DNA of 32,000 nt. It comes from an uncultured Candidatus Saccharibacteria bacterium (GTDB lineage: Bacteria > Patescibacteriota > Saccharimonadia > Saccharimonadales > Saccharimonadaceae). The stretch is taken from contig CAYOSV010000003.1 in the NCBI GenBank assembly GCA_964406725.1, positions 9,962 through 41,961 on the forward strand, written 5' to 3'. Position numbers and translations under genes: made by a program. The number at the start of each line of letters is the position of its first letter. Within the stretch, counting starts at the first letter, position 1. The notes beneath the pieces are model-generated. The model searched no databases. It saw only the letters and a program-made list of their open reading frames with translations, and had not been told where the DNA came from. This document shows positions 3,940 through 20,376 of the stretch, in pieces.

Positions 3940-4283
3940 GACCGAAATTCTTCGGTTGAAGCATTGCTAAATATGTGCTTTAGAGGTTTCTTCCATCTGA
4001 AAGAGACCTCATTTTTGTTGTTGATTTCTAGGTTCGTAAGCATATTTCTGGCCAACTGGTCTTTTTGCCAGGAATCGCCAGATTTCATCTTGTCACCGAT
4101 GGAATCCAGCTGGTTCGTAAGCTCATCCAGAATTTCGCGAACTTGGTCTGGATCGAAGATTTTAGCCTCAATCTCATCACGCTCAGTTTGCAAAGTTGCT
4201 ATATCGTTCCGGCATTCTTCAAGCTGTTCACCCACCATCTGTTTAGCCTCTTTTGGCGCATCTTTGCCTAAATGTCTGTTCCA
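3918..4283 (-). pseudogene. Start-less remnant of a coiled-coil protein (possibly the C-terminal part of a recombinase) running into the tRNA 3' end
   Basis: The frame is open from 4283 with its only Met at 4238 and no RBS. It has a heptad-like acidic coiled coil, then LEINNKNEVSFRWKK. The last ~7 codons are encoded by the tRNA 3' end, and a small hairpin (3941-3956) also lies inside it. Confidence 0.3.
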
Positions 4284-4297
4284 TTATTTCTTTTATT

Positions 4298-5869
4298 CTA
4301 TTTTCCATCCTTTTTCTCCACTATGTAATTATTATTATACTTCAACGGTTTAGTTAGCGTGTATTTGAAACGCTGAACCTCACGAGAATGATTTGGAACT
4401 TTTCGAAATCCATTATCACTATAGAATGTTTTAGTCTGCTCGTTCTTTTTGCTATCTATATACTCACCTATGACCGTTTTGACCCCTAATGTCTTTAGTT
4501 CATTTAATACGATTTTTAGAAATTCTCGCTCAATTTTTCGGCCTAATATTCTGCAACTCATTAAAAATGTATCTATAGTCGCTTCTTTTTTGTTTTTTCT
4601 AACTATTGCAACTCCGGTAAGGCCAAGATCTCCGAATTTATCACTTACTTTTATTGCTATTATTAGCGCGTCAGTCATATTAGCTAATTCGGTTTTACCG
4701 TAACGCCTAGTTGTTAAATTGAACTGATTCGTTTTATTGATCAGCTGAGCGATTCTGTCGCTATTATTGTCGTTTATGGTCTCGTAGGCTATTTTGATTT
4801 TCAATTTTTTTATAAACTCATCCTCGTTTTCGACTCTTCTTCTCAACTCTTCACTTTCCGTTTTATGTTTATAGTAAATATTTTTATTTACGTCGTCTTC
4901 TGTTAGTAGATATGTTCCGAAATATCTATAAAAATCTTTGGCGAAATGTCCAACCATTTTATAGGGTGAATCTGGGAAGTCTAAGACTGTAACTCCATCC
5001 AATGCTTTTACGTTTTCTCTTTCTACTGGGCTATCATCTATAAAAACAATGCTATCTAAACCGATATTCAGTTCATCAGCTAATTCAGAAATATTAAGTC
5101 TTTTCTCTGACCAATTTATCTTTTTAGCAGCAAAATCATCCAGAGACAATACTAAATCATCTCTTTTTTTGAAACACAGAGCTACATCATCATAGTTATT
5201 TTTGCTGCAAATCCCTAGCAGAATACCTTGATTTTTTAGCTCTAAAACCATTTGTTGAAAACTATGGAAACAATTGCCTGGATAGGAGCCGCTGATTTGT
5301 AAATTTGCCAATCCGTCTTCACCCAGAATACCACCCCACAAAGTATTATCTAAATCTAGGATTAGGCATTTTTTTCGAGTTCCTCGAAACAGCGCCATCT
5401 TATCTAAAATAAAACGCCGAAAATCTTTCGCAAGAGACGGGTTTATTATTGCATTATATAAGTAATAATACTTTGGGTTAAATACGTCGTTATGATTATT
5501 ATAAAATGGCGCTATATCTATAACTCTGACATTTTTCTGGCTATATAGATATTCATTATATGAGTTAATAGCTTTCTCTAATTCATTATTTCCGAAAACG
5601 AATGATTCGTAAAAATAATTATGTAGGGTGATTGCAAATATTGTCCTATTTGGATAATTGTTTATGATGTATTTCGCTCGTTCAAAATAGCTATTAATCG
5701 TCGACACTAAATCTTTAATAGAATAATCATATGGTAGCATATAGAAAATCATTATATCTGTGTCGTCGTTCAATAGTTTAATATCACCATATGCGCTATA
5801 CGATATAGTTTCTACGTCTTTGAATAAGTATTCAATTGCGGTATCACGATAACAGTAAATCTTTTTCAT
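4298..5869 (-). CDS. FkbH-like HAD-IIIC family protein (putative glyceryl-ACP forming enzyme) with C-terminal GNAT-like region
   Basis: Signature CLILDLDNTLWGGILGEDG (DxDxT HAD motif I), ICSKN, FIDDSP, and the C-terminal FLMSCRILGRKIEREFL typical of FkbH-domain proteins. Confidence 0.8.
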   Translation of the reverse strand: MKKIYCYRDTAIEYLFKDVETISYSAYGDIKLLNDDTDIMIFYMLPYDYSIKDLVSTINSYFERAKYIINNYPNRTIFAITLHNYFYESFVFGNNELEKAINSYNEYLYSQKNVRVIDIAPFYNNHNDVFNPKYYYLYNAIINPSLAKDFRRFILDKMALFRGTRKKCLILDLDNTLWGGILGEDGLANLQISGSYPGNCFHSFQQMVLELKNQGILLGICSKNNYDDVALCFKKRDDLVLSLDDFAAKKINWSEKRLNISELADELNIGLDSIVFIDDSPVERENVKALDGVTVLDFPDSPYKMVGHFAKDFYRYFGTYLLTEDDVNKNIYYKHKTESEELRRRVENEDEFIKKLKIKIAYETINDNNSDRIAQLINKTNQFNLTTRRYGKTELANMTDALIIAIKVSDKFGDLGLTGVAIVRKNKKEATIDTFLMSCRILGRKIEREFLKIVLNELKTLGVKTVIGEYIDSKKNEQTKTFYSDNGFRKVPNHSREVQRFKYTLTKPLKYNNNYIVEKKDGK

Positions 5870-6285
5870 ATTTCCTCCATTAATTCTATTAGTTTACCGC
5901 TCTTGTACATAAAGCATATCTTGCCATTGAACAATTTAGCTATTTCAATATTAGTGATTAAAGAATAGCCATCTTTTTTGAATACCTTAATGGTGCGATC
6001 AAGATTGTTTATTTTAAAACAGGTGTGGTATTCTTTCTTATAGTTGTTGTGTGACAAATTGAAAACTCGCGATTCTGGATTATCTGTATATATTAGCTCT
6101 ATGCTGTTTTGATTATCCTTACTAAGTAACCGCAACTTAGCCTTTTGCCCGGAGTCATAGACCTCGTTTGTAATTTGATAACCATCCCGCAGATATTCGT
6201 CCGTTAATTCATCTAAATTATTGGTGGCAACCCCTATGTGATGAATTACTAGCCCATTAACGACTCGGCAATTTTGACTTTTCAT
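5866..6285 (-). CDS. VOC/glyoxalase-family protein (methylmalonyl-CoA-epimerase-like fold)
   Basis: N-terminal LVIHHIGVATNNLDE resembles the VOC metal-binding beta-strand motif. Size is 139 aa. 4-nt ATGA coupling on both sides. Confidence 0.55.
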   Translation of the reverse strand: MKSQNCRVVNGLVIHHIGVATNNLDELTDEYLRDGYQITNEVYDSGQKAKLRLLSKDNQNSIELIYTDNPESRVFNLSHNNYKKEYHTCFKINNLDRTIKVFKKDGYSLITNIEIAKLFNGKICFMYKSGKLIELMEEI

Positions 6286-7424
6286 GCTAGCCTCTCTATC
6301 TTTTTTATGAGAGACTTCATATATTCTTCAGTGAATTGATCTCCGTAGTAACCTATACTGATATTTGTCTTATGGGAACATTCTACTATAACTATCGAAA
6401 ATGCACCTAGAGGTTGTTGTATTGATAAGTCTACAAAATCTTTAACTTTAAAATATTTATTGGAATATTCATTTAAATCTATTCTGCCTAAATGCGATAT
6501 GACGGCGCCGACGGAAAATTTATTGTAGTGTCGGTTTGCCATGCATCCAATTTTTATGCCCGTCTTTCGCAACAAACTTGGCATACGACAATAATAATTG
6601 TTCAAAGTATTGCTGATGTTTAACTCTTTGCTGTTCTTCAAACTATACAACAGCTCACCATTAATCTTGGTATAACTATCGCTCTTATCTACATCTAGAA
6701 AAACTGGCAAGGTCAGATTGCCTATATATGGATTGTTGCCGTCGTAACGTCTTAAATCTACAGGCACCATTACTCTTATCCGGTCGCTTTCAAATTCCCG
6801 AGCTAAAAGGCACGAAAGTTTGGCTATAATACCCGAAACATACTTGTCTAATTGTACGACTTGCCACCTTGTCGTGTATTGTTTGATAACCGACGCTTCG
6901 TCATGGATAATTCGGGGTAATTTTGGTTCTTTCTTCTTGTAGTAGTCTAGTTTCTTTAAGAAATCTTTCTCGGAGATAGCTTTTTTGCATTTTAGTGGCT
7001 TTTTTCCGCCTAGTAGATTTACAATGTTTTGCATAAAAAGAAGGGCACTCTTTCCATCCATTGCCGAATGGGCGAATCGAAACACTAAATAATCGCTCTT
7101 GGGCGCCTTCACGAGATAGACTTCCATTGAGTGGCTAATTAAATCTATTTTTTGATTAAATAAATCTAGACTATAGACAATAGAATCTTTGATTTTAATA
7201 TCTTGGATACTGATTGGATGCTGCTGTGGATAAAATTTACCCCTTCTTAGATAGACATTAAATTCTGGGCATTCTTTTATTACTCGCCTAATTACACATT
7301 CAATTATATCTTTATTTTTAATGCTGCTAGTTTTTAGAATGAACTGTATTGCATATGCATTGGTTGCGCTCTGTACATCCTCATATAATTGCTCTATATT
7401 TGTGATTTTTCGAATTGGTTTCAC
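6282..7424 (-). CDS. Stand-alone condensation-domain-type acyltransferase (HxxxDG; PapA5/WS-DGAT/NRPS C-domain superfamily)
   Basis: FRFAHSAMDGKSAL carries the HxxxDG catalytic motif at about residue 120. Downstream VDLRR and GNLT segments resemble C-domain motifs. 380 aa. Confidence 0.6.
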   Translation of the reverse strand: MKPIRKITNIEQLYEDVQSATNAYAIQFILKTSSIKNKDIIECVIRRVIKECPEFNVYLRRGKFYPQQHPISIQDIKIKDSIVYSLDLFNQKIDLISHSMEVYLVKAPKSDYLVFRFAHSAMDGKSALLFMQNIVNLLGGKKPLKCKKAISEKDFLKKLDYYKKKEPKLPRIIHDEASVIKQYTTRWQVVQLDKYVSGIIAKLSCLLAREFESDRIRVMVPVDLRRYDGNNPYIGNLTLPVFLDVDKSDSYTKINGELLYSLKNSKELNISNTLNNYYCRMPSLLRKTGIKIGCMANRHYNKFSVGAVISHLGRIDLNEYSNKYFKVKDFVDLSIQQPLGAFSIVIVECSHKTNISIGYYGDQFTEEYMKSLIKKIERLA

Positions 7425-8989
7425 TTTCCACCTCTCTTTATCTTTAATGTAGTGGTTTTCTCGAATTCATCTTCCTTGATTATGTATTTATTGATACGTT
7501 TATAATCCGGTAATTCTGCATTTATGTCTTTAATAAGTTTACTTATTTTGCTGTCGAGAGACTTATCTTTCCGGTTTTTATCTTCTGGCACTATTGTAGC
7601 GATAATTTGTAAGCCGGATTTCTTTTGAACTCCATTTATGATACTCTCTTTAACTATGTCGCTATAATTAATCAGTGTTTCTAGTTCCTCTGGATAAATG
7701 TTTTTACCGTTACTGGTCACAATGACGTTTTTCTTTCTACCAACTACTTCCAGATTACCATCATTTCTTATTCTGCCTAAATCACCCGTGTAGAGCCAAC
7801 CATTCTTTAAAACCTCTCCCGTAGCTTTTTCATCATCATAATAACCCAACATAACTTGTGGAGCTTTGGCAATAATTTCTCCAATACCAGCCGCATCTGG
7901 ATTGGCTATTTTTAGATGTACGCCATTTAGCGGCCTACCGACGCCAATTTTACTTTTTACAAACATTCCGCGAATGGTTAAAATCGGTGAGCTCTCCGTT
8001 AACCCGTATCCCTGGTAAATATTAAATCCTAAATCGTCCAGGAAGTTAAAAACCCTTTGGTCTAGCTCTGCTCCACCACAAGCGATCATGCGAACCTTGC
8101 CTCCAAATCTGGCGTGAATACTAGAGAATAAGAGCTTTCTTATATCAATATGTAATAGTCTCACTCCTCTTGATATAAAAATTAGTTTTTGCAGAGCCTT
8201 TTCTTTGTGTGTTTTCTTAGCTGTGAGTTTTATATTATTCATAATGTATTCGAGCAGCCTCGGTACCACAACGAGTGCAGTTGGCTGGTAAAAGCACATT
8301 TCTCTCTGCATGTCTTTAATATTTTTGCTAAAACAAATCGAGCATCCATTGGTAATAGGCACCAACACTGCACACATTAGAGTAAGCGTATGATGGAGTG
8401 GCAAAATTGTATAATACCTATCCGTGGATTTTAGCCTAAAAGCGGCGGCTGAAGAATAGGCACAAGAAACTAAGTTTTTTTCGGATAACATGACGATCTT
8501 AGATTTAGACGTTGTGCCGGAAGTTAGAAATAGTGCGGCGCAGTCGCGTTTCGACACTTTTTTGACTTTACGATTTGGCGTCTCTCTGATGATGTCGTCT
8601 ATTTTATTTATATGTTCTGCATGGATATTTTTAGGAAGACAATTTACTTTGTCTTTCGTTAAATCATCATAGAAAATGAAATCCAAACCGATACGCTTAG
8701 CAGATAATGCAAGCTCTTTTTCTGGCAGCTCTTTATCAAGTGGCACTATTGTTCCAACGTCAGCAGCCATGGCAAAGAATAGTAATAGCCAACTATAAGA
8801 ATTAGACGCATAAATACCAATCTTTTTGCCAACTAAACTATTGTCCACAAAGTAACCTGACAATTTTTGGATATCATTATAAAATTCTTCGTAGGTCTTT
8901 GAAAATTTTTCGTCGACGAAGAAAGTTTTCTGCCCATACTTTTGGACACTTTCAGAAATCATCGCAGAGAAATTATTCGCCCTAGTCAT
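7421..8989 (-). CDS. AMP-dependent synthetase/ligase (FadD-like fatty acyl-AMP/CoA ligase)
   Basis: ANL motifs: LTSGTTSKSKIV, YGLTESS, GWLYTGDLG, and a terminal TLKIKRG lysine. Confidence 0.85.
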   Translation of the reverse strand: MTRANNFSAMISESVQKYGQKTFFVDEKFSKTYEEFYNDIQKLSGYFVDNSLVGKKIGIYASNSYSWLLLFFAMAADVGTIVPLDKELPEKELALSAKRIGLDFIFYDDLTKDKVNCLPKNIHAEHINKIDDIIRETPNRKVKKVSKRDCAALFLTSGTTSKSKIVMLSEKNLVSCAYSSAAAFRLKSTDRYYTILPLHHTLTLMCAVLVPITNGCSICFSKNIKDMQREMCFYQPTALVVVPRLLEYIMNNIKLTAKKTHKEKALQKLIFISRGVRLLHIDIRKLLFSSIHARFGGKVRMIACGGAELDQRVFNFLDDLGFNIYQGYGLTESSPILTIRGMFVKSKIGVGRPLNGVHLKIANPDAAGIGEIIAKAPQVMLGYYDDEKATGEVLKNGWLYTGDLGRIRNDGNLEVVGRKKNVIVTSNGKNIYPEELETLINYSDIVKESIINGVQKKSGLQIIATIVPEDKNRKDKSLDSKISKLIKDINAELPDYKRINKYIIKEDEFEKTTTLKIKRGGK

Positions 8990-9506
8990 ATAGTTCCTCT
9001 ATGGCCTCCTCTAATTTATCCGTGAGAATGTCCGCATCTGAATCTTTTTTTATCTCTAATTTGATAGATGTCGCAATCGACTTTATGTCATCCGGAAAAT
9101 CATCATTATTAAGATTAATCCCTACTCCTACTACGACATATTCTAGTGTATCGGCCTTAAAATGCGCCTCAATCAAAATACCACAGACTTTTTTATTATT
9201 AATCTTGATATCATTCGGTAAAACCACTTTGGAATTTACGCCGTATAGTTCATTTAGCTTTTTAGAAATGATAACTGGTATGTGTTCTAAAGCATCTTTC
9301 CTTAACTTTTTGTCTCCACTTTTGTTTTTCAACAGGAAACTAAGAGTAATACTTTTATTTGGTTCGGAAAACCATTTCCTATCGAACTGTCCGCGCCCAT
9401 TCGTTTGGGATTTTGCAATGATTAGAATATTTTCATGCGTTTTGTCTGCTATTTTTTCTGCATGATCATTGGTGCTATTGATGCTTTCTAGAACAATTCT
9501 TTTCAT
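8982..9506 (-). CDS. birA: Biotin--protein ligase, catalytic core only (no HTH, apparently no C-terminal domain)
   Basis: SINSTNDHA, QTNGRGQFDRKW (GRGRxGRxW-type motif), KINNKKVCGILIE. Start placed at the second Met (ATGA overlap with the fabF stop, GGAG 6 nt upstream). The ORF track start is 9518. Confidence 0.8.
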   Translation of the reverse strand: MKRIVLESINSTNDHAEKIADKTHENILIIAKSQTNGRGQFDRKWFSEPNKSITLSFLLKNKSGDKKLRKDALEHIPVIISKKLNELYGVNSKVVLPNDIKINNKKVCGILIEAHFKADTLEYVVVGVGINLNNDDFPDDIKSIATSIKLEIKKDSDADILTDKLEEAIEELYD

Positions 9507-10729
9507 TGCGCGCTCCATTTCTTAAATACCAGACAGGCATTATGGCCACCAAAACCAAATGAATTAGATAGAGCATAGTTAGCGTTGGTCAACCGCTCTT
9601 TTTCAGAGACATTCAAGACACAGTCGTCTTCTAGATCCAACTTGTAAGTACTACCGGGTATAATTCCGCTCCCCAGCATTAATATCGTAGCTATAGCCTC
9701 TACTGCACCGCTAGCGCTAAGCAAGTGCCCGATTTGCGACTTAATCGACGACACGGGTGGACATTCCTTACTCCATATCTCGCGGATGGCTTTTGCTTCA
9801 GTTTTGTCACCCAATATCGTAGATGTGCCATGCGCATTGATATACCCGATATTGTCAGGATTAATCTCGGCGCAGGCAATAGCACCCAACATAGCATCCT
9901 TGCTCGATAGGCCTTCGTAGTCTGGTGATACCATATTAAAAGCATCCGAATTATTAGCGTATCCTACAATCTCGGCATATATCTTAGCCTTTCTTTTTAG
10001 CGCGTGAGATAGCTCTTCCAAAACTAGAACACCAGCACCCTCTCCTATTAGAAAACCACTACGCTTTTTATTGAAAGGAATTGAAGCGCATTTTTTGTCT
10101 TCGCCAGTATATATAGCCCTCATTGCGGCGAAGCCGGCGAGGGTTAGTGGAGTTATAGACGCATCTGCTGCTCCAGCAACGAAAATATTATTATCTCCAT
10201 TTCTGATTTTTAGAAATGCTTCACCTATTGATATGCCACCACTTGCGCAGGCCGCTACATGACACATACTACTCCCTTTAGCACCTAAATCTATTGATAC
10301 TTTTGCTGCGGCCGTATTTGGCAAAACTGATTGTAGGAAATATGGTGAAATTCTGGCTGCGCCTTTTGTGTCTAATTGTCTAACACCGTCACTCAATATC
10401 TCTGGTCCACCAATGCTTGTAGAAATATAAACTCCGACCTTCTTAGCATCTTCTAAAGCCATATCTAGTCCGGAATCATTCCATGCTTCACGTCCGGCAA
10501 TTCTCGCAAAATTTGTAAATCTCGAATCGAATTTTGTATCTCTTTTTGGCAAGGATGATAAGTCTAAATCTTTGACAGTTGCCGCTAACTTTACGGGCGA
10601 CTCGGCGAATTCTTCCGTATCTAAGACACTAATACCATCTTCGCCAGACTTTAGGCTATCCCAGAAGTCTTTTGCATTATTGCCAATAGGAGTAATCGCA
10701 CCTAACCCAGTTACTACCACTCGTCTCAT
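9503..10729 (-). CDS. fabF: Beta-ketoacyl-ACP synthase II (elongating KS, Cys-His-His)
   Basis: RRVVVTGLGAITPIG, active-site ACASGG, HGTST, GHLLSASG, FGFGGHN. Confidence 0.9.
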   Translation of the reverse strand: MRRVVVTGLGAITPIGNNAKDFWDSLKSGEDGISVLDTEEFAESPVKLAATVKDLDLSSLPKRDTKFDSRFTNFARIAGREAWNDSGLDMALEDAKKVGVYISTSIGGPEILSDGVRQLDTKGAARISPYFLQSVLPNTAAAKVSIDLGAKGSSMCHVAACASGGISIGEAFLKIRNGDNNIFVAGAADASITPLTLAGFAAMRAIYTGEDKKCASIPFNKKRSGFLIGEGAGVLVLEELSHALKRKAKIYAEIVGYANNSDAFNMVSPDYEGLSSKDAMLGAIACAEINPDNIGYINAHGTSTILGDKTEAKAIREIWSKECPPVSSIKSQIGHLLSASGAVEAIATILMLGSGIIPGSTYKLDLEDDCVLNVSEKERLTNANYALSNSFGFGGHNACLVFKKWSAQ

Positions 10730-11514
10730 TTTATAATCCTTTCAATATCTTCTAGCGACTCAACTTTCCTTACTCTAGCTCGAACCCCCTTTTCTTTGCA
10801 TATTTGACGAATTAGATTTACCGGCGCAGTTCCAATGCCGATGCTGATAAATTCATCTACTGAGTCATCCAACATATTTTCAATAATGCTTTGGAATTGT
10901 ACCGGGCTCACTAAATGCTTCACCATCGCTCCTCTGACATCTTTGATTATTTTCTTGCCAGTTAAGTTACAATAAATCGGTATAGTAGGCGTTTTCTCGC
11001 AAAAGCTATCTAAAAATCTCCTCATCTTTTCACTGGCACTATTTAAATATGGGGAATGGAAGGCGCCAGTTACTCGCAAATCAATTGTCGATGCGTTTTT
11101 AAATTGCCGGAAAGCATCCTTAAACTCCTTTATTCTTGTCTTTTCTCCTCCGACTACGGTTTGCATAGGTGAATTATAATTTGTAACAAAAAGACCGCAC
11201 CTCGTTGCCATTTTCTCAATTTCTTTTGCCGGCATACCGAGGCACGCCACCATAGAAGTATTTGAGCCTCTTAATGCATCATCCATTATTTTTTGCCTAA
11301 ATATTAGGATTTGCTCTAGCTCTTCAACGTTAAAAACATCCGCAACAGCAAAACACGCATATTCCCCAAGGCTAAGACCTGCTATCGCATCTGGCTTAAT
11401 ATCATTTGCGATTAAAATTTTCGCTAAAGCAATGCTCATCCAAAAAGTGGCTAGCTGAGGATTATGAATTCCCAGTCCTTCTCCTTGTCCAGTAAAAATA
11501 AACGCTCGTTTCAT
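10726..11514 (-). CDS. fabD: Malonyl-CoA:ACP transacylase, shortened
   Basis: FIFTGQGEG, nucleophile elbow GLSLGEY, NSPMQTVVGG, GAFHSPYL. 262 aa compared with about 310 for typical FabD. Confidence 0.8.
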   Translation of the reverse strand: MKRAFIFTGQGEGLGIHNPQLATFWMSIALAKILIANDIKPDAIAGLSLGEYACFAVADVFNVEELEQILIFRQKIMDDALRGSNTSMVACLGMPAKEIEKMATRCGLFVTNYNSPMQTVVGGEKTRIKEFKDAFRQFKNASTIDLRVTGAFHSPYLNSASEKMRRFLDSFCEKTPTIPIYCNLTGKKIIKDVRGAMVKHLVSPVQFQSIIENMLDDSVDEFISIGIGTAPVNLIRQICKEKGVRARVRKVESLEDIERIIK

Positions 11515-13133: not shown

Positions 13134-14395
13134 TACTCATTCTCTCCAAAATAGCTATAGCTACCCACTATATAATCTTCTCGGCTAATAGTCTCGTAGA
13201 GTTCATCAACGTTAGTATGAGCACCTAAAATAATTATTTCATCAAGTGCGAGTTTCATCTTTGAGATCGCCCTCCGCCTTTCCTTGTCGCTTGCTATTAT
13301 TTTTGCAATCAGCGGATCATAATATGGCTTTATTCGGTATCCTTGATAAATATATGTGTCTATTCGCACATCTTTTCCCGTAGGTAAGCTAAATATATTA
13401 AGCTCGCCATTATCCTTAGCAGATAGCCTGCATTCGATGGCGCATTTTTTAGCACTCACTTTCATAGGCAGACGATTCTTCTGACCTGAAGCTATTCTGA
13501 TCTGCTGTTCAACAAGATCTATACCCGTGACCTCTTCTGTTACAGTATGTTCGACTTGTAATCTAGAATTTATTTCAAGAAAATAATAGTTCATCTGTTT
13601 ATCCACCAAAAATTCAATCGTCCCGACACTATCAAATCCAACCTCTTTTATAAGTTTGACGGCGTCTTGTTCCATTTTTTCCAACAGCTCTTTTGGTATA
13701 TTAGACACTGGGGTTTCTTCAATGACCTTCTGATAATGCGATTGCACGGAGCAGTCTCTGGCCGGTAGAATAGAAATTTTGCCGAATTTGTCCGCAACAA
13801 ACTGTATATCTATATGCTTATATAAATCTATTATTTGCTCCAGGAAGAAACTGTCTCCGCTAAACCCAGTGCTCAAATTTAGTTTGGCGGATTTGAGACA
13901 ATAGTCGAAATCCTCTTTGTTTTTTACTGTTTTTATGCCTTTTCCACCACCGCCATAGCTTGATTTAATCATTAGCGGATATTCATCTTTATCGACTGAT
14001 GGGATAACTGGAATTCCTAATTTTCTTGCCATTTCTTTCATCCGGAATTTATTTGCAGTTTTTTCTAAAATGTTGCTTGATGGCCCAATAAATATAATTC
14101 CACTTTCATGGGCTCGTTTTGCAAACTCATCATTTTCGCTTAAAAAGCCATACCCTGGATGCAAAGAATCACATCCCGTATTTTTTGCCGCCTCTAGAAT
14201 TGCTGGAATGTTAAGATACGAGTCTGATGGGCTGCTATCACCAATACAAATCGCCTCATCGGCCAAGAATACCGCCATAGTATCTTTATCGCATTTTGAG
14301 TATGCCACAACCGTTCTAATACCCAAAATACGGCAGGTCTGTATTATTCTTACTGCTATTTCTCCTCTATTTGCAATTAGTACTTTTTGAATCAT
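13133..14395 (-). CDS. accC: Biotin carboxylase
   Basis: KVLIANRGEIAVRII, HPGYGFLSEN, SYGGGGKGI, RDCSVQSHYQKVIEE, EINSRLQVEHTVTE. Confidence 0.92.
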   Translation of the reverse strand: MIQKVLIANRGEIAVRIIQTCRILGIRTVVAYSKCDKDTMAVFLADEAICIGDSSPSDSYLNIPAILEAAKNTGCDSLHPGYGFLSENDEFAKRAHESGIIFIGPSSNILEKTANKFRMKEMARKLGIPVIPSVDKDEYPLMIKSSYGGGGKGIKTVKNKEDFDYCLKSAKLNLSTGFSGDSFFLEQIIDLYKHIDIQFVADKFGKISILPARDCSVQSHYQKVIEETPVSNIPKELLEKMEQDAVKLIKEVGFDSVGTIEFLVDKQMNYYFLEINSRLQVEHTVTEEVTGIDLVEQQIRIASGQKNRLPMKVSAKKCAIECRLSAKDNGELNIFSLPTGKDVRIDTYIYQGYRIKPYYDPLIAKIIASDKERRRAISKMKLALDEIIILGAHTNVDELYETISREDYIVGSYSYFGENE

Positions 14396-14757
14396 ATATA
14401 ATCAACCTCAAAAAGCTTAGAGCCAAATTCTACACTCTCTCCGTTCTTAAAATACGTTTTTCTAATAATCAAATCAGCCGGTGCACAAATTTTATTCATT
14501 ATTTTCATGCTTTCAATGATACATAAAGACTGACCTTCTTTAACTCTTTCGTTTATTTGTATGGTTGGGGATACATCATAATAAGTGCCTACCAGCGGCG
14601 ACAAAATATGTTTATCTGGATAGTCAGTCTTTTCTTGATCCGTTTTAGGACCATTCTTCTTTATAGAAACTCTAAAATCGGCATCCTCGTACTCAAATTC
14701 GGTTGCTTCAGAATTATCGAAATCAGCTAAAATCTTCTTTAGTTTATCAATTGGCAC
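14392..14757 (-). CDS. accB: Biotin carboxyl carrier protein, short form
   Basis: Biotinyl-lysine motif CIIESMKIMNKI in a C-terminal lipoyl/biotinyl fold. 121 aa. Confidence 0.8.
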   Translation of the reverse strand: MPIDKLKKILADFDNSEATEFEYEDADFRVSIKKNGPKTDQEKTDYPDKHILSPLVGTYYDVSPTIQINERVKEGQSLCIIESMKIMNKICAPADLIIRKTYFKNGESVEFGSKLFEVDYI

Positions 14758-14983
14758 TTTCTATACCTTTCTCCGCTAGTAAATCCAAACAATTCTTTAC
14801 GGTCTTTAGTTTAGCGAGTTCGCTTTGCTCTACTTTTATATTGTATTTTTCTTCAAGCGAGAGCACTAATTGCGTAGTCGCCAAGCTATCGATCATCAAA
14901 TCGTCTCTTAGGCTAGTTTCTAATGTAATATCATCGTCTATGCCCAATTCCTCATCTAGAAACTTTTTAAATTCTTTCAACAT
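14747..14983 (-). CDS. Acyl carrier protein (cluster-specific)
   Basis: 78 aa, acidic, with the phosphopantetheine site LMIDSLATTQLV (DSL). Confidence 0.85.
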   Translation of the reverse strand: MLKEFKKFLDEELGIDDDITLETSLRDDLMIDSLATTQLVLSLEEKYNIKVEQSELAKLKTVKNCLDLLAEKGIESAN

Positions 14984-14984
14984 T

Positions 14985-15917
14985 TTATATCTCCATTAAT
15001 AATATATTAGATGTTAACCCTGCCGCAGTCCCACATAGCATTACTTTGTCACTAGTATGGATTTTTCCTTCTTCTAGCATTTTGCATAACATAAATGGAA
15101 CCGAAACGGACACTTGATTACCAAAGCTATCAACGCGATTGACATATTTTTCTTCTGGTATTCCCAATTTTTTCATAATCAAGGGTAATGCCTTACTCGC
15201 CTGATGTGGGATTACTAAGTCTACATCGTTCAATGATAGATTAGCCTCTTTTTTAAAATCATCAAACATTTTTGGTAATTTTCGCGTGCATGCACGTAAT
15301 ATATCGAGCCCCTCCATTTTAAAGTAATATTTGTCTCGGTTTTTATTGTTCATTTTAGTGGCATTAAGTCCAGTTAATCCACCTATAATTTCTGTCGCGT
15401 GCGCGCTTTCTGACCAAGTGCACTGTTTAGAGGCTATTACACCTTGTTTCGTATCATTAGTATGAGAAAGTACAATTGCCGCGGCTCCGTCAGAGAATAG
15501 TTCATAGATTTCTTTTTTATCCTTCGGAAGCCCAGGGCTAGCCAGCTCGCTTGATACAATTAAAATATTTCTATATGTTCCAGCTGCAATTAGATACGAT
15601 GCAATGTCCAGTGCGGTTATAAAGCTAGTACAAGTGGTATTAATATCCATGGCAGGAATATTGCAGTCGTTCATTATTTGTTCATGAATTAAGCTTGCTG
15701 TACAGGGGATTGGTTGGATACCTACTGCTGAAGCGGCTATTATCAAATCAATATTTTCTGGTTTTAGCCTAGCATTTTTCATCGCCTTTTTAGCGGCATC
15801 TGTCGCCATAAAAAGTTGATTTTCCTTACCTGAAGCTCTGTATCTAATTTGACTACCAAATGTCACTATGTTTTTTGGTAAATAATATCCATAGCCCGAT
15901 ATTTTACAATTTCTCAT
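14985..15917 (-). CDS. KAS III (FabH)-like condensing enzyme
   Basis: ISGYGYYLP at the N-terminus. Cys in NTTCTSF, His in IPHQAS, Asn in FGNQVSVS (Cys-His-Asn triad). 310 aa. Confidence 0.85.
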   Translation of the reverse strand: MRNCKISGYGYYLPKNIVTFGSQIRYRASGKENQLFMATDAAKKAMKNARLKPENIDLIIAASAVGIQPIPCTASLIHEQIMNDCNIPAMDINTTCTSFITALDIASYLIAAGTYRNILIVSSELASPGLPKDKKEIYELFSDGAAAIVLSHTNDTKQGVIASKQCTWSESAHATEIIGGLTGLNATKMNNKNRDKYYFKMEGLDILRACTRKLPKMFDDFKKEANLSLNDVDLVIPHQASKALPLIMKKLGIPEEKYVNRVDSFGNQVSVSVPFMLCKMLEEGKIHTSDKVMLCGTAAGLTSNILLMEI

Positions 15918-17191
15918 TTTTTTATCCTTTCCACTCGCTTCATCTTTTTACTAAAATCAGATTCATATTTCTTAAAAGTAGTGGCTGGCATTTTGAAACG
16001 CATTCTCTTAGCGAGAGTTTTTAACTCTTCTTTGATTAGTCTTTGATTTTCAATGTCTATATTATCTAGATAAAAAATGACTTTTTTAGATGATTCTTGT
16101 ACTACTCTATAATTCTTTATTTTGGGCACGTAGAGTACCACTCTGGAAATAAAATCAGGGAATACTTTTATCGTTCTATCATTTACGCCATCAAATTCAA
16201 AAACATCATCCATCCTTCCTTCTATCTTCTTAAGCCTCGTCATGGATGTCCCGCATTTACATGGCCTTCTGTCTTCAACCAAAATATCGTTTAATCGATA
16301 TTTGACAATAGGTTGAGTCGTCCTAACAAAGTCTGTGATAACCGGAGTAAATCTTGTGTCGTCAAGATACTCCTTTTCAACCGCTATAACATCCTCGTTG
16401 AGATGTAGGGAGCCATGCTCGCAAGTGTATCCAAGGAATCCTTCGGTGCATTGATATACTTGGTATATTATCTTTTGCTTGAAAACCCTTTTCAAATATT
16501 GTTCGTCTTTTTCTGTTAATACTTCTGCAACTGATATAATCCTTACCGGATTAATGCTCAGCTTCTTGGCTTTGGTAGCCTCCGCCAGTATGAGCAGTAC
16601 AGATGGCGGTGCGATCAAAATTGTCGGCTGAAACTCCTGTAATTTTATTATATTTTGTTCCATTGGCTTTAAGATGTCAAAAAACTCAAATTTAAGCATC
16701 TTACTGTTTGATGACTCATATAAGTTATTGTCAGCCCGAAGGAAAAACGCAACTTTGGTCCCAAAGATCTTACCTTTCGGTAGCATTTTTGCCATCATGC
16801 CGCCCACCCACGTTGCGATCTCAATGTCGCTAAGGACAAACACCCCACGGTGTCCGCTTGTCCCAGATGACAACCCAACAGAATAGCCATTCAGCTTTTC
16901 CGAAAAATCACGGCTTTTTTCGCTATTAATAGCTAGCTTAAGGGCATCGTCCTTTGATATTCCAGCTGTATTTATTCTGTCAAAATTATCCATCATGACT
17001 TTTTTATTCATATACGGCAACTCTTCAAAAGTTTTGCCACTAAACTTTTGAAAATACGGGGAATGGTGTTCTAGAAAAACTAGTTGTTTTTTTATCTGTT
17101 TTTGCTGATATTTTTCCAGCCTCTTTCGACTTTTAAATTTGTGAAAATAGCGAGCACGAATAAATGTTTTAAGAATTAAGCCTTTATTCAT
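15914..17191 (-). CDS. F390-synthetase-related / PaaK-like adenylate-forming enzyme
   Basis: N-terminal KRLEKYQQKQIKKQL helix. P-loop-like GLSSGTSGHRGVF. Size and layout are as in the F390 synthetase/phenylacetate-CoA ligase clade. Confidence 0.7.
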   Translation of the reverse strand: MNKGLILKTFIRARYFHKFKSRKRLEKYQQKQIKKQLVFLEHHSPYFQKFSGKTFEELPYMNKKVMMDNFDRINTAGISKDDALKLAINSEKSRDFSEKLNGYSVGLSSGTSGHRGVFVLSDIEIATWVGGMMAKMLPKGKIFGTKVAFFLRADNNLYESSNSKMLKFEFFDILKPMEQNIIKLQEFQPTILIAPPSVLLILAEATKAKKLSINPVRIISVAEVLTEKDEQYLKRVFKQKIIYQVYQCTEGFLGYTCEHGSLHLNEDVIAVEKEYLDDTRFTPVITDFVRTTQPIVKYRLNDILVEDRRPCKCGTSMTRLKKIEGRMDDVFEFDGVNDRTIKVFPDFISRVVLYVPKIKNYRVVQESSKKVIFYLDNIDIENQRLIKEELKTLAKRMRFKMPATTFKKYESDFSKKMKRVERIKK

Positions 17192-17982
17192 AGCAGCTCC
17201 TTTTTATTGTTTGCATCATGGCTAAATACCAGATTAACACCTTTTTTCTTTAATAACTTTAAGTTATCTAGGGTATTACGGTATTCTCTCATATTGTCCT
17301 GTATTAATGATGCAGGAAACTTCATATGGTATGATAGATCAATTAAATCATTCCCCCAACATGAGTCTGCTGCTAACAAAATCTTATTATCTATTAGCGC
17401 ACCCAATTGACCGCTAGCGTGACCACCTAGCTTTAATAAAATTAAACTGCCGTCATTAAACAAGTCGTAACCTTTTAGCGCACCAAAAACTTCAGTTACC
17501 ATCATTTTGTCTGAAATTACGTTAGCCCTATCTTCAAAATCGGCAGGAAAGAAATGTTGCATTATTAAATCTCGTATCCTTCTATTTTTGTATGTATTTA
17601 TAGTTTCTTTTGAGACAATAAAATTCGCCTTGCCAAAACTCCTAAGTCCACCAATATGGTCTGGGTGCAAATGCGACAGTATAATTATCTTAATATCCTC
17701 CGGCCGAGTCCCGATCTTACTAAGTTGAAACTTTAGCTCGTCATTTTCTTCTACTGATGTGGGATTAAAGAAATTATAAGCTCTACCAACAAAACCAGTT
17801 TTACAAATATCGACAGAATAACCTGTATCAAAAAGAATCAGCCCATGTTTAGCGTGCTCAATCAAAAATGCTCCGGCTGGGAATTTTCTTTTTTCGCCAC
17901 GCATACCCCTAAAAACTCGACCGAGGTTATTTGTACAATATCCACAACTAAAATACTTAACACTTTTGATGGCTGGTTGCAT
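17188..17982 (-). CDS. MBL-fold metallo-hydrolase (lactonase-like)
   Basis: HxHxDH motif ILSHLHPDHIGG, plus later GGHASG and SHD metal ligands. N-terminal SCGYC segment. Overlaps the SDR stop by 26 nt. Confidence 0.8.
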   Translation of the reverse strand: MQPAIKSVKYFSCGYCTNNLGRVFRGMRGEKRKFPAGAFLIEHAKHGLILFDTGYSVDICKTGFVGRAYNFFNPTSVEENDELKFQLSKIGTRPEDIKIIILSHLHPDHIGGLRSFGKANFIVSKETINTYKNRRIRDLIMQHFFPADFEDRANVISDKMMVTEVFGALKGYDLFNDGSLILLKLGGHASGQLGALIDNKILLAADSCWGNDLIDLSYHMKFPASLIQDNMREYRNTLDNLKLLKKKGVNLVFSHDANNKKELL

Positions 17983-18955
17983 ATTTCTCGATTCCTTCGC
18001 TTAATGTCATCTTTGGTTTATATCCCAAATCTCGCTTCGCTTTGTCAATATTTAAAGTCTGGCTATAGCCCAAAGTGCAGATAGTGTATTTAGTAATTGG
18101 TGGCTCTTTATAAATATGAAAAACCTTATAAATTGATTCTATGGCGGTTGCGGCCGAGATGGCGAATCTTAAGTTAATATTCTTGTATCTTGGTGTTTCG
18201 CCAAGTTGCTTAAATAATTCCTCCAGCAATCCTTTGAATTCTTGCGGCTCATCATTGGTGATATTATAAATCTTATGTGATGACTTTTTACTTTCTGCTG
18301 CGAGCCTCACTGCGTATGCGACATTTTCGACGCACGTCATATCTACATAGTTCTTTCCGCCCCCAAACAAAGGCAATCCTATTTTCTTGTTAGCATGTAT
18401 TAGTCTAGGAACGATACTCGTATCGCCTACCCCAAATAATCCTCGTGGGCGAAGTATTGTCCAATTAATGTCATCATATTTCTCGATAGCTTTCTCGGCT
18501 AGAATTTTACTTTCAATATAGTAGTTCAATTTGTTGTCTCTATCATAATCATCTTCGTCTATATCTAATTTATCGGATCTGCCAGCATAAATACTGGGGG
18601 ATGATATATACACGAGTTTATTAATCTTGTTTTTACGGCAGGCTTCCAAGATGTTTTTAGTACCATCGACATTGGTTTTTAAAAAATCGGATCGTTTACC
18701 CCACACAGTTGAAAGTGCACCGAGATGAGCGACAATATTAATATTTTTCGTAGCCTTTAAGCAATCTGACGAACTACATAAATCTCCGTAAGCCAATTCG
18801 ATTTCCGGATATTGCTGCTTTAAAGCTGACATTTTTTGCTTATTTCTGCCAAAAGCAACGACAGTATATCCGTTATCCAAAAATTCGGCAATAACATACT
18901 TACCTAAAAATCCATAAGCGCCAGTAACTAATACTCTACGTGAGATCCTTTTCAT
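17957..18955 (-). CDS. NAD(P)-dependent epimerase/dehydratase / 3-beta-HSD-type SDR
   Basis: Rossmann VLVTGAYGFLGKYV and catalytic YIESKILAEK (YxxxK). Start moved to MKRISRR (GGAG 6 nt upstream). The ORF-track start at 19000 lies inside a leader hairpin. Confidence 0.8.
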   Translation of the reverse strand: MKRISRRVLVTGAYGFLGKYVIAEFLDNGYTVVAFGRNKQKMSALKQQYPEIELAYGDLCSSSDCLKATKNINIVAHLGALSTVWGKRSDFLKTNVDGTKNILEACRKNKINKLVYISSPSIYAGRSDKLDIDEDDYDRDNKLNYYIESKILAEKAIEKYDDINWTILRPRGLFGVGDTSIVPRLIHANKKIGLPLFGGGKNYVDMTCVENVAYAVRLAAESKKSSHKIYNITNDEPQEFKGLLEELFKQLGETPRYKNINLRFAISAATAIESIYKVFHIYKEPPITKYTICTLGYSQTLNIDKAKRDLGYKPKMTLSEGIEKYATSHQKC

Positions 18956-19128
18956 GATTTTCTCCATACTATCCCCATAACCAAGTGGAACACTCGCCAT
19001 GGAGTGTTCTAGACTTCATTTTTCACAGTAAGCTATCGAGCCAACTGGAGCGAGTGCTCCACGCAGGGTTCGATATTTCACACTACCTTGTTAGGGGTAG
19101 ACTTACCATGAAATTGAAATCTAGAACT
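18956..19128 (-). promoter_or_regulatory. Structured ~170-nt 5' leader of the biosynthetic operon (candidate riboswitch/attenuator, class unknown)
   Basis: Nested helices on the minus-strand RNA, in plus coordinates: 19120-19127 with 19006-19013; 19098-19106 with 19028-19035; 19067-19073 with 19036-19042; hairpin 19047-19060. An alternative hairpin at 18988-19009 excludes the outer helix. Confidence 0.4.
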
Positions 19129-19134
19129 ATCTTT

Positions 19135-19143
19135 ATTATATCA
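19135..19143 (-). promoter_or_regulatory. Extended -10 promoter (TGATATAAT on minus strand) for the 15-gene operon
   Basis: Reverse complement of attatatca is tgatataat. It lies in the only gap (19001-19164) of the cluster. Confidence 0.6.
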
Positions 19144-19164
19144 TACCCACCGCCAAAATTGCGG

Positions 19165-20313
19165 CTATATGTCTAATACTTTTTTATATAATCTTTCGAC
19201 TTTTATACCAAACTCTTCTTTGCTAAAATTATTGGATTTTTTCAAGGAATTTTTATGCATATCATCCATCAACATCTTATTGTTTAATATAGACTCAACA
19301 CCTTCTATAAAATCATCTTCATTTTCAAAAACAAATCCGTTGCTACCTTTTTCTATTATCCTATCTAGACATTTATCTTTTTTGCAGACCATGGGCATCC
19401 CAGATGCTAATGCCTCTACATATGTTAGCCCTTGCGTCTCACTCGTTGATGCTGATACGAAAATATTCCCCAATTGATAATATTTGTATATTTCATCTCG
19501 CAAAATCGCACCGGTAAAAATCACATGGTCACTCATATCCAATTTATTTATTTCCTTAACTAATTTTGTTTTATATGGTCCATCTCCCACTATGATTAGT
19601 TTTATGTCTTTGTCTCTTTTTGTTAATGCTGGCAAGTACCTAAGTAACTCATCTATATTCTTTTCTGCTGCCAATCTGCATACTGTTACTAAATATTTAT
19701 TAGAATTTTGCAAACCTAATTCGGATAAAATTTTCGTTTTTTCTTTTTTGGGCAATCTTTTCTTATAGATATTCATATCTATACCGGAAGGAATGATTTC
19801 TATCGGGCATTTTATACCATATTTTTCCATTACAGCTTTTACCTTTTCCGACGGGACAATTAGCGTCGCCGAAGTGTTATAGATTTTATTGCTCATAATT
19901 TTCACAATTTTCTTGCCAAGTTTCTTGTTTGGGCAAAAATATTCAGTATAATCTTCGTATAATGTATGGCATGTTGCCACAAATGGAATATTGAGGGTTT
20001 TTATTATTTTATTTGCAAGAATTTTAGTGGTAAATTCTGATTGAGCATGGACAATATCGGGTTTCCAATCTATGATTTTTTGTATCAACTTATCATGTGT
20101 TTTTAAACTAAACCTTGCCCCCGGATAAACCGGAATCGGCTTAGACGCAATATAATAATTATTATCCTTAAAATATGATTTACCGTTTGGAGATAAAACA
20201 AGCATCCGGACATCATGCCCCAGTTTTCTTAGCTCATCTTTTAATGCAGCGTTTGAATTATGAGCCCCGCTTATTTGGTATTCACACACGTCAGATGAAA
20301 ATAATATTTTCAT
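19165..20313 (-). CDS. GT4-family glycosyltransferase (resembles glycosyl-diacylglycerol/glycolipid synthases)
   Basis: N-terminal MKILFSSDV...ISGAHNSNAALKDELRKLGHDV pattern, as in MGS/CpoA-type GT4 enzymes. E-x7-E motif in STSETQGLTYVEALASG. Confidence 0.75.
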   Translation of the reverse strand: MKILFSSDVCEYQISGAHNSNAALKDELRKLGHDVRMLVLSPNGKSYFKDNNYYIASKPIPVYPGARFSLKTHDKLIQKIIDWKPDIVHAQSEFTTKILANKIIKTLNIPFVATCHTLYEDYTEYFCPNKKLGKKIVKIMSNKIYNTSATLIVPSEKVKAVMEKYGIKCPIEIIPSGIDMNIYKKRLPKKEKTKILSELGLQNSNKYLVTVCRLAAEKNIDELLRYLPALTKRDKDIKLIIVGDGPYKTKLVKEINKLDMSDHVIFTGAILRDEIYKYYQLGNIFVSASTSETQGLTYVEALASGMPMVCKKDKCLDRIIEKGSNGFVFENEDDFIEGVESILNNKMLMDDMHKNSLKKSNNFSKEEFGIKVERLYKKVLDI

Positions 20314-20343
20314 ATTAAGTTTATTCTTTGTTATCTCTTACGT

Positions 20344-20352: not shown

Positions 20353-20376
20353 TAATCCAGCTTCTTAGAATTTATT

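Follow-up and report, generated by a model that had tools for sequence, protein, structure and literature searches.

The DNA analysed here (the window, a stretch of 32,000 nucleotides from contig CAYOSV010000003.1) comes from an uncultured Candidatus Saccharibacteria bacterium and carries a compact block of 16 minus-strand genes between positions 4298 and 20313. In our best explanation, which we hold to be probable as a whole, this block is carried by an integrative genomic island of ~19 kb that sits at the 3' end of a tRNA-Leu(GAG) gene and was mobilised by a large serine recombinase, and this cargo would encode an accessory, carrier-protein-dependent pathway similar to type II fatty-acid synthases (FAS II) and polyketide synthases (PKS), leading to a glycosylated lipid-type metabolite and not constituting a fatty-acid synthase. 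The island has moved recently between distinct Saccharibacteria species of the ruminant gut. Its ends and the genes that travel beside the 16-gene block are the following.

3849-3939, plus strand: tRNA-Leu(GAG), the integration target (ARAGORN, Rfam); its last 9 nt (3931-3939, CGCGCACCA) are the left copy of a direct repeat
22892-22900, plus strand: right copy of the 9-nt direct repeat CGCGCACCA, marking the right-hand limit of the segment that is 98% identical in locus L010
3918-4238, minus strand: remnant of a large serine recombinase, comprising its C-terminal 106 aa and matching residues 418-523 of the intact protein of locus L092 at 98% identity
20437-22027, plus strand: AbiEi (DUF6088) and AbiEii, a type IV toxin-antitoxin pair in the mobile segment (Pfam), 98-100% identical in L010
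22149-22589, minus strand: hypothetical gene of 146 aa in the mobile segment, 100% identical in L010, no family found

The transfer is seen in the contrast between the island and its surroundings. Across positions 5917-22901 the window and L010 (Saccharibacteria RGIG5791) share 98.3% DNA identity, whereas the DNA of the flanking SBP5, SecG and UvrC genes is 67-74% identical. The same holds for the proteins, with 96-100% identity for those of the island compared to 58% for SBP5 and 73% for UvrC. In a third genome (L092) the FkbH end of the island is 97% identical to the window at the DNA level, and the flanks are 66-69% identical. Thus, two other Saccharibacteria species harbour the same island at 97-98% DNA identity with flanks at 66-74%, and because the island is 98% and the flanks are only about 70% identical, the transfer between species must be recent, which makes this a clean case of an island passing from one species to another. 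An identical TIGR02304 protein and a 96%-identical contig at NCBI are likewise named 'Candidatus Saccharibacteria bacterium', and one relative stems from sheep ileum.

The shared segment stops at CGCGCACCA, which repeats the 3' end of the tRNA-Leu gene, and the island is therefore placed at about 3931-22900. This 9-mer occurs exactly twice in the 32 kb against 0.1 copies expected (repeat search) and is att-like. When repeats derived from the tRNA and at least 14 nt long were sought within 3700-22700, nothing relevant emerged; the copy at 22892-22900 lies outside that range. The intact recombinase of L092 comprises 523 aa with Resolvase, Recombinase and Zn_ribbon_recom domains, and the window copy is devoid of the catalytic N-terminal ~417 aa; intact large serine recombinases are present in L092 and L107, not in the window. 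No empty integration site was found, as every contig of the window's species has the island together with the same deletion. We saw no conjugation or phage genes in the island. The earlier note on this DNA, made from the letters alone, had described a tRNA with an ORF remnant on one side and a toxin-antitoxin pair on the other and had proposed horizontal acquisition. These elements are now recognised as the tRNA-Leu(GAG), the recombinase remnant and the AbiE pair (PF19570 with 101 bits, PF08843 with 139 bits, genes 1 nt apart), and the identity contrast, the att-like repeat and the remnant put the acquisition on firmer ground than composition does.

Three side observations concern the integration site and mobility. 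In both the window and L092 the island lies at the tRNA 3' end, and relative to the SBP5-SecG-UvrC-Eno block the unit of tRNA-Leu and island points one way in the window (3849-3939) and the other way in L092 (~6100-6191), indicating that the species differ by a local inversion or in their tRNA arrangement. Between the right end of the island and SBP5 the window has about 2 kb of small unannotated ORFs (22901-24897) where L010 has only ~0.9 kb of DNA unrelated to it, so that the region next to the integration site seems to be variable. A Bacilli metagenome-assembled genome (MAG, GCA_028709685.1) carries a tyrosine integrase and two small ORFs between its FadD and condensation-adenylation (C-A) genes (L103 16677-17663; L094/L095 4904-5890) in the middle of the homologous cluster, and a second integrase fragment at the contig start; the cluster is thus associated with mobile elements outside Saccharibacteria, too.

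The genes of the cargo form a tightly packed array. From 19000 (or 18955) down to 4298, 15 minus-strand ORFs are linked by overlaps of 1-26 nt or by a 1-nt gap, and the ORF of a GT4-type glycosyltransferase (19165-20313) adjoins this 15-gene block. Independent public gene calls for the same scaffold are concordant with our ORF list and bear out the organisation described earlier, all 16 ORFs are intact and translational coupling is tight. Two promoter-like elements are assigned to the array.

19135-19143, minus strand: extended -10 promoter-like element of the 15-gene operon (TGATATAAT; motif enrichment and location upstream of gene starts)
20344-20352, minus strand: extended -10 promoter-like element of the GT4 gene (motif scan)

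The extended -10 motif TGNTATAAT is found at 14 sites in the window compared to 2.6 expected, nearly always just upstream of gene starts, and the motif scan returned no minus-strand copy inside the 15-gene block. As sites precede both the block and GT4 and none lies on the minus strand within the block, the genes form one long transcription unit and a separately promoted GT4 gene, in agreement with the promoter of its own that had been postulated for GT4. Examples of the motif are located at 734, 3830, 19135, 20344, 22635, 28144 and 29956, with no obvious -35 element, and it looks like the main promoter signal of the Saccharibacteria genome in the window. A generic promoter/terminator scan gave counts not above those of shuffled sequence, and the tRNA is the sole match in an Rfam scan of the window. 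At the head of the operon, a hairpin with a 10-bp stem (18986-19011) overlies the first ATG (19000) of the short-chain dehydrogenase/reductase (SDR) ORF, for which gene callers are split between 347 aa (19000) and 332 aa (18955); the hairpin may be a 5'-untranslated or translational control element of the operon. The GC content of the block is 36.6% versus 42.6% in the flanks, and GC at third codon positions is about 0.30-0.38 versus 0.35-0.49. The lower GC content reported in the earlier note is thus correct in direction, not in size (its spot counts gave 30% against 45-62%), and tetranucleotide usage, which had been suggested as a check, does not separate the island from its flanks.

Five genes at the upstream end of the array comprise the conserved core and the glycosyltransferase.

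17957-19000 (start perhaps 18955), minus strand: extended SDR of the 3beta-HSD/OleD type with GxxGxxG and YxxxK motifs (NCBIfam, PDB search)
17188-17982, minus strand: metallo-beta-lactamase (MBL)-fold hydrolase of the lactonase clade with HLHPDH motif (PF00753; AttM, 4-pyridoxolactonase and AhlS models)
15914-17191, minus strand: TIGR02304 'F390 synthetase-related' PaaK-like adenylate-forming enzyme (539 bits, cutoff 252)
14985-15917, minus strand: condensing enzyme of the beta-ketoacyl-ACP synthase III (KASIII) type with Cys96, His238 and Asn267, invariant in the alignment (PRK07204, 279 bits)
19165-20313, minus strand: GT4 glycosyltransferase (PF00534 and PF13439)

A motif scan found the diagnostic motifs. 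The two best NCBIfam matches of the SDR are OleD models (207 and 197 bits, with cutoffs of 580), and its best PDB match is NSDHL. Almost all of the named PDB matches that the MBL-fold protein has at E<1e-6 are lactonases; PqsE is absent from its matches. The TIGR02304 protein is a member of this family, matched over residues 6-422, and its nearest solved relatives are PaaK structures, i.e. phenylacetate-CoA ligases (46 bits). For the KASIII protein the PDB neighbours are Aquifex FabH (140 bits), MxnB (137), CorB (130), PqsD (77; PqsC is also matched) and OleA (54). A second cysteine in this family, Cys72, lies 24 residues ahead of the catalytic Cys96 in the motif Q-x-[IL]-P-C; the motif is invariant, and Cys72 is near-invariant (25/26). 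The GT4 enzyme scores best with NF049988 (alpha-monoglucosyl-diacylglycerol synthase), at 216 bits below the cutoff of 400, yet ~100 bits ahead of other models.

The core of SDR, MBL, TIGR02304 and KASIII genes is syntenic in the related loci that we recovered from at least 550 species genomes; all four genes are present in most loci, and the rest are cut by contig ends. Hosts include streptococci of the mitis and salivarius groups, Enterococcus, Aerococcaceae, Lachnospiraceae, Fusobacterium and a Campylobacteraceae MAG, and the core is also found on plasmids and chromids of Bacillus mycoides, Ketogulonicigenium, Ralstonia and Burkholderia. A GT1-type gene almost always adjoins it, e.g. in Streptococcus, Enterococcus, Lachnospiraceae, Campylobacteraceae and Aerococcaceae, and Enterococcus additionally has a gene for a GT21 lipid-type glycosyltransferase. 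In 674 of 5426 complete E. coli genomes (12%), including LF82, NRG857C, ABU83972 and uropathogenic strains, the core lies between narI and purU, and genes for PAP2, 'sterol desaturase family' and acyl-CoA desaturase proteins come next (e.g. KE48, NZ_CP141085.1, L105 5185-12066). These PAP2, desaturase and hydroxylase genes beside the E. coli core argue for a lipid product.

The core also occurs in an extended layout with the order PPTase (phosphopantetheinyl transferase), core, ACP (acyl carrier protein), BCCP (biotin carboxyl carrier protein), AccC, AccDA, FabD, FabF, (GT1, GT4), BirA. It is present in an Erysipelotrichaceae MAG, a Clostridia MAG, GCA_016648615.1 and others, and tblastn gives the same order for L012, L014 and L015. 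The long gene order of the window recurs in a Bacilli MAG. Intermediate forms add just ACP and FabF, sometimes with FabD, and FabG, FabZ and FabI are added in none of these layouts. In a neighbour-joining tree of the concatenated core (1290 columns, 200 bootstraps), a distance tree with limited sampling, the window, L010 and L009 form a clade with 100% bootstrap that is nested among Firmicutes, with extended clusters of Erysipelotrichaceae and Clostridia and with Aerococcaceae as nearest relatives. A fourth Saccharibacteria locus, L022, groups with the unrelated 'bacterium AM_1205' at 100%, and the monophyly of the four Saccharibacteria loci obtains 0%, implying at least two acquisitions into the phylum. 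Most likely the donors were of Firmicutes type, a direction of transfer suggested by this distance tree.

No functional description of the cassette was found in the literature, where papers that mention F390 synthetase in Pseudomonas merely list the gene. The view that the pathway is undescribed therefore appears to be correct, as no characterising paper was found; it is not specific to this lineage, since the core occurs in Firmicutes, Fusobacterium and Proteobacteria and a Bacilli MAG shares the long gene order. The orphan cassette is thus very widespread, and the island appears to carry a self-supplying variant of it in Saccharibacteria.

The genes that make the variant self-supplying follow the core in the operon.

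14747-14983, minus strand: ACP with DSL motif (PF00550)
14392-14757, minus strand: BCCP with SMKIM motif (PF00364, TIGR00531)
13133-14395, minus strand: biotin carboxylase AccC (Pfam, NCBIfam)
11511-13133, minus strand: fused AccD-AccA carboxyltransferase (PF03255 and PF01039; accD and accA models)
10726-11514, minus strand: compact malonyl-CoA:ACP transacylase with GQG, GLSLG and GAFHS motifs (PF00698; TIGR00128 136 bits, below cutoff)
9503-10729, minus strand: FabF-type beta-ketoacyl-ACP synthase II (PRK07314, 445 bits, cutoff 387)
8982-9506, minus strand: minimal biotin-protein ligase consisting of the BirA catalytic domain only (TIGR00121, 129 bits, cutoff 83)

Several of these enzymes are compact: FabD has 262 aa and GLSLG in place of GHSLG, BirA has 174 aa and no C-terminal domain, and AccD-AccA is a 540-aa fusion. 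The earlier identification of the genes by motif is confirmed by Pfam and NCBIfam in essentially all cases; the HxxxDG 'acyltransferase', however, has the fold of a condensation (C) domain of non-ribosomal peptide synthetases (NRPS), as detailed below.

Acetyl-CoA carboxylase (ACC), BirA, FabD, ACP, KASIII and FabF are all present and intact, which might point to housekeeping de novo fatty-acid synthesis for membranes, i.e. to a split FAS II that supplies the acyl chains of the host. Its selective value would be high because Patescibacteria, including the CPR/Saccharibacteria, are reported to be unable to make fatty acids and to depend on host lipids (PMC12455944), and the GT4 enzyme resembles monoglucosyl-diacylglycerol synthase. 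Searches of the 32-kb window with Pfam and NCBIfam, however, gave no FabG, FabZ/FabA, FabI/K/L/V, thioesterase or PlsX/Y/C, in line with the list of missing enzymes compiled earlier, and a PPTase is absent from the window as well. Neither the scaffold flanks nor the extended relatives examined contain FabG, FabZ/A or FabI/K/L/V; the fully annotated extended forms, namely the window, GCA_016648615.1 and the Bacilli MAG, are without FabG, FabZ and FabI. A complete FAS II is excluded within the sequence available. Moreover, the SDR is of the extended OleD/3beta-HSD type and not a classical FabG, and the same core is accessory in Streptococcus and E. coli, where it is confined to 12% of complete genomes. 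Both organisms possess FAS II. We therefore consider fatty-acid synthesis for membranes very unlikely, and the autonomous route to acyl chains envisaged in the earlier note is not borne out, as the reductive-cycle enzymes are found neither in the window nor in the extended relatives examined.

The four core enzymes map one-to-one onto the roles of the Ole/Lst head-to-head pathway. In such a scheme KASIII would act as OleA and join two long acyl chains non-decarboxylatively, the SDR would serve as OleD, the TIGR02304 enzyme would take the OleC role as beta-lactone synthetase and the MBL enzyme would act on the beta-lactone, either in the OleB role or by hydrolysis, giving a 2-alkyl-3-hydroxy acid, beta-lactone or olefin that is then glycosylated. 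The two OleD models that head the SDR matches and the lactonase neighbours of the MBL enzyme fit this scheme, and Ole clusters that bear glycosyltransferases are known (PMC7064751). The condensing enzyme, on the other hand, does not fit. OleA is a thiolase whose catalytic Glu-Pro (Glu117 in X. campestris) is contributed across the dimer (PMC7064751), while the position 26 residues before the catalytic Cys is occupied by Ile/Leu-Pro in 26/26 aligned members of the family. With Glu117 of the X. campestris enzyme (PMC7064751) as criterion, the window KASIII has no Glu-Pro between residues 55 and 96, where residues were matched by spacing and not by structural alignment. OleA structures reach only 54 bits compared to 130-140 for FabH, MxnB and CorB. 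Furthermore, the adenylating enzyme belongs to the PaaK/F390 subfamily and not to the OleC type, an MBL enzyme stands in place of the alpha/beta-hydrolase OleB, and the non-decarboxylative route needs no ACC, FabD or FabF, yet the extended relatives add them. Taken together, an Ole-type pathway seems unlikely.

Ligase, KASIII and MBL-fold hydrolase constitute the logic of PqsA, PqsD and PqsE, and this combination is present here. A Pqs-like small-molecule pathway would start from an aryl or short acid activated by the PaaK-like ligase and extended by KASIII with malonyl-ACP, after which an MBL thioesterase in the role of PqsE, the SDR and the glycosyltransferase would finish a small glycoside or signal. 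This would account for the need for malonyl-ACP, the nearest solved TIGR02304 relatives are indeed phenylacetate-CoA ligases, and PqsD and PqsC are among the KASIII matches. PqsD is distant at 77 bits, however, the PDB matches of the MBL enzyme are lactonases without PqsE, and the role of FabF is left unexplained. In addition, the membrane desaturase, hydroxylase and PAP2 genes that follow the cassette in E. coli and the lipid-type GT21 of Enterococcus are at odds with a small-molecule product. We regard a Pqs-like pathway, too, as improbable.

Downstream of BirA the operon continues into a distal module.

7421-8989, minus strand: FadD/MenE-like adenylate-forming enzyme of the ANL superfamily (PF00501, 200 bits; specific NCBIfam models all below their cutoffs)
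6282-7424, minus strand: stand-alone NRPS condensation-fold protein, 380 aa, with H119-x3-D123-G124 (AlphaFold2 model and Foldseek)
5866-6285, minus strand: VOC/glyoxalase-fold protein (PF13669, Glyoxalase_4, 40.7 bits)
4298-5869, minus strand: FkbH-like protein of the HAD-IIIC phosphatase/glyceryl-transferase type with DLDNT at residue 172 (TIGR01686, 266 bits, cutoff 147; PDB 3slr, BF1531)
4264-4308, minus strand: remnant of a carrier-protein gene, namely the 15 initial codons of a gene for 71 aa that sister islands have after FkbH (L092 compared by blastn and tblastn)

The 380-aa protein was placed by structure. Its match to the Pfam Condensation family is weak (E 0.003-0.03), there is no significant Pfam match, and sequence searches of the PDB with the single sequence and a four-sequence profile returned noise. 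The AlphaFold2 model (pLDDT 89) retrieves the PDB entries AzeD, RzmA starter C, LgrA and SrfA-C with Foldseek at E of about 1e-19 to 1e-17; with AzeD the E-value is 2e-19 and the TM-score 0.77, and many further C domains are matched. Residues H119, D123 and G124 do not vary in the family, which is rare: a set of 5.8 billion proteins contains 16 homologues, some fused to AMP-binding domains. The window protein is 56% identical to residues 1-378 of a 958-aa C-A protein of L106 and orthologous to the C part of the C-A proteins (955-963 aa) of sister islands. A 361-aa protein of L027 was dropped as a relative because it failed to align.

Sister islands carry a fuller form of this module. After FabF and BirA, L106, L107 and the Bacilli MAG encode FadD, a C-A protein (955-963 aa), VOC, FkbH, a PP-binding protein (71-75 aa) and a second C-like protein, and the VOC gene stands between the C(-A) gene and FkbH in L094, L106 and L107. 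Only in L106 and L107 does a PPTase come after the second C-like protein, whereas the PPTase of the Bacilli MAG (GCA_028709685.1) lies upstream of the SDR. In L106 (5180-13399) and L107 (5180-15850) the complete order reads FadD, C-A (955-958 aa), VOC, FkbH, 71-aa carrier protein, second C-like protein, PPTase. L092 (2840-6120) resembles the window and has no second C-like protein; there FkbH is followed by the 71-aa carrier protein, PPTase, small ORFs, the 523-aa recombinase, tRNA-Leu, SBP5, SecG, UvrC and Eno. The FkbH-adjacent carrier-protein gene is intact in L092, L094, L106 and L107, and its L106 homologue is PP-binding. In the window a deletion of ~2.9 kb with its junction at 4262-4268 has removed the N-terminus of the recombinase, the small ORFs, the PPTase and the carrier-protein gene beyond 15 codons. 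Since the A domain, carrier protein, second C domain and PPTase kept in sister islands are lost there, comparison of the gene orders indicates that the window copy is a stepwise-reduced derivative.

These losses raise the possibility that the cargo is decaying and non-functional, kept only by its recent arrival and the AbiE addiction module. In comparison with sister islands the PPTase, the carrier protein, the A domain, the second C domain and the catalytic domain of the recombinase have been lost, and neither the window nor the gene calls shown for the scaffold include a PPTase. Against decay, all 16 ORFs are intact and tightly coupled in translation, the same deleted form occurs in contigs from several samples, and a PPTase could be encoded elsewhere in the genome. 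The dN/dS of 0.14-0.17 between island copies, which shows that the island genes are under purifying selection, also speaks against decay. We think this reading rather unlikely.

The presence of FkbH brings to mind acyl-tetronates of the RK-682 type. Tetronate clusters follow a logic in which FkbH, KASIII and a 3-oxoacyl-ACP cooperate: here FabF would make the 3-oxoacyl-ACP, FkbH would load a glyceryl unit on its carrier protein and KASIII would fuse both into the tetronate ring. FkbH, KASIII, ACP, fatty-acid activation and malonyl extension are all encoded, and a lactonase-like MBL enzyme suits a lactone product. The KASIII core is without FkbH in most loci examined, however, FkbH is inherited with the C-A, VOC and carrier-protein sub-block and not with KASIII, and the carrier protein of FkbH is deleted in the window. 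The conservation of KASIII without FkbH disfavours this logic, which could apply only to FkbH-bearing variants, and we rate it as very improbable, lowest among the alternatives weighed here.

We thus favour the accessory, carrier-protein-dependent pathway to a glycosylated lipid-type metabolite. The order of its steps, its substrates and its product are deduced from the gene families. The TIGR02304 and/or FadD-like adenylating enzymes would activate a scavenged acid, which KASIII and FabF would condense with malonyl-ACP to give beta-keto intermediates on the ACP of the island. The OleD/3beta-HSD-type SDR would reduce the beta-keto group, an adenylating enzyme together with the lactonase-clade MBL enzyme may form a lactone or beta-hydroxy-acid head group, open it or release it, and a glycosyltransferase (GT4 in the window, GT1 in most other hosts) would add a sugar. 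FadD, the C domain, VOC and FkbH would be what is left of an NRPS-like tailoring module of FadD, C-A, VOC, FkbH, carrier protein, C and PPTase, which probably attaches a glyceryl unit (from FkbH and the carrier protein) or an acyl unit via its C domains. Chemistry centred on beta-keto, beta-hydroxy-acid and lactone groups is suggested by the likeness of the SDR to OleD and NSDHL, of the MBL enzyme to lactonases and of KASIII to MxnB and CorB, and a lipid that is later decorated is suggested by the GT1, GT21 and GT4 genes and the PAP2, desaturase and hydroxylase genes of E. coli.

The presence of BCCP, AccC, AccD-AccA, BirA, FabD and ACP on the island would be explained by a host that presumably has no FAS II to provide malonyl-ACP. 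Extended lineages add this supply, the machinery for holo-ACP and FabF, never the reductive cycle, suggesting that malonyl-ACP and FabF-made beta-ketoacyl-ACP are the only FAS-derived inputs of the core. Most likely, then, the fab and acc genes supply only malonyl- or beta-ketoacyl-ACP.

Several points weigh against this pathway. Family resemblance is the sole basis on which the chemistry is assigned, and among specific NCBIfam models only TIGR02304, FkbH, FabF (PRK07314) and BirA score above their cutoffs, all others falling below. The role of FabF is not uniquely explained, and the starter need not be a fatty acid since PaaK-like enzymes often take aryl acids. The carrier protein that partners FkbH, the A domain and the second C domain are lost from the window copy. 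The 32-kb window has no PPTase, and the gene calls shown for the 46.6-kb scaffold include none; were one also missing from the rest of the genome, both condensing steps would be without holo-ACP. Finally, the lack of FAS II in the host is taken from the literature on the phylum (PMC12455944) and not from this genome, which is represented by one contig.

A bolder proposal goes beyond this pathway, and we offer it tentatively, as doubtful. The cassette may represent an unrecognised, widespread class of lipid pathway in which two condensing enzymes acting on an ACP yield a lactone or beta-hydroxy-acid lipid, glycosylated or otherwise decorated and unlike Ole, Pqs, pyrone or tetronate compounds. 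In Saccharibacteria devoid of FAS II, the mobile island would bundle the cassette with its own malonyl-ACP supply and the FkbH/C-domain module, and would turn scavenged fatty acids into a glycosylated, possibly glycerate- or glycerol-linked envelope lipid independently of PlsX/Y/C.

Several gut Saccharibacteria obtain from the mobile element two ketosynthases, an ACP, an acetyl-CoA carboxylase and malonyl transfer. Lipid or polyketide chemistry based on carrier proteins is thus traded horizontally inside a phylum of reduced genomes, where it probably remodels scavenged lipids and does not serve de novo synthesis. Common as it is in mitis-group streptococci, in enterococci, in Fusobacterium and in E. 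coli (12% of complete genomes), the core cassette is unstudied, and its product could be traced in such genetically tractable hosts.

The flanks of the island encode ClpP, L31, SecG, a short UvrC (417 aa, 26884-28137) and enolase. A 474-aa protein at 1267-2691 has weak matches to Por_Secre_tail and CHU_C, sorting domains of type IX secretion that are unexpected in Saccharibacteria, and to FlgD-Ig, and may be a surface protein.

Compared with known systems, the element resembles tRNA-targeting integrative islands in the recombinase gene that abuts the tRNA 3' end, the short flanking direct repeat, the toxin-antitoxin module and the near-identical copies in divergent hosts; it differs in that the recombinase of the window copy is truncated. 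All components of the type II FAS set of ACC, BirA, FabD, ACP, FabH and FabF are present and recognisable, but the reductive cycle and the phospholipid acyltransferases are absent from the window and the extended relatives examined, the enzymes are compact and they reside on a mobile island. The Pqs alkylquinolone system shares the combination of an ANL ligase, a KASIII and an MBL-fold hydrolase working on a malonyl-extended starter, and differs in the lactonase-clade MBL enzyme not matched by PqsE, the distant PqsD, the additional SDR and glycosyltransferase and the missing second heterodimer of PqsBC type. With FkbH glyceryl-ACP systems (methoxymalonyl-ACP, tetronate) and the RzmA starter C domain the island shares an FkbH above cutoff and RzmA among its top fold matches, as well as the C-A, carrier-protein and PPTase genes of sister islands. 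Here, however, the A domain resembles acyl/aryl-acid ligases and not A domains for amino acids, VOC is always interposed and the module of the window is truncated.

The KASIII-like ketosynthases compared here are the head-to-head enzymes MxnB and CorB, which form alpha-pyrones, and the DarB/StlD family. MxnB and CorB match the KASIII protein at 137 and 130 bits, equal to FabH, a likeness at the level of sequence in which the Cys-His-Asn triad is not discriminating. The use of beta-ketoacyl-carrier substrates, as in these enzymes, would explain why only ACP, FabD, FabF and ACC have been co-opted, although the surrounding trans-AT PKS and an aromatase are missing. Nearest in logic among the systems compared is OleABCD/LstABCD. 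It differs in that the KASIII of the cassette has no Glu-Pro, the adenylating enzyme is PaaK/F390-like, an MBL enzyme replaces OleB and the extended relatives add a malonyl-ACP supply that is needless for Ole chemistry, while four roles are common to both: a thiolase-fold condensing enzyme, a 3beta-HSD-type reductase, an ATP-dependent adenylating enzyme and a hydrolase acting on lactones.

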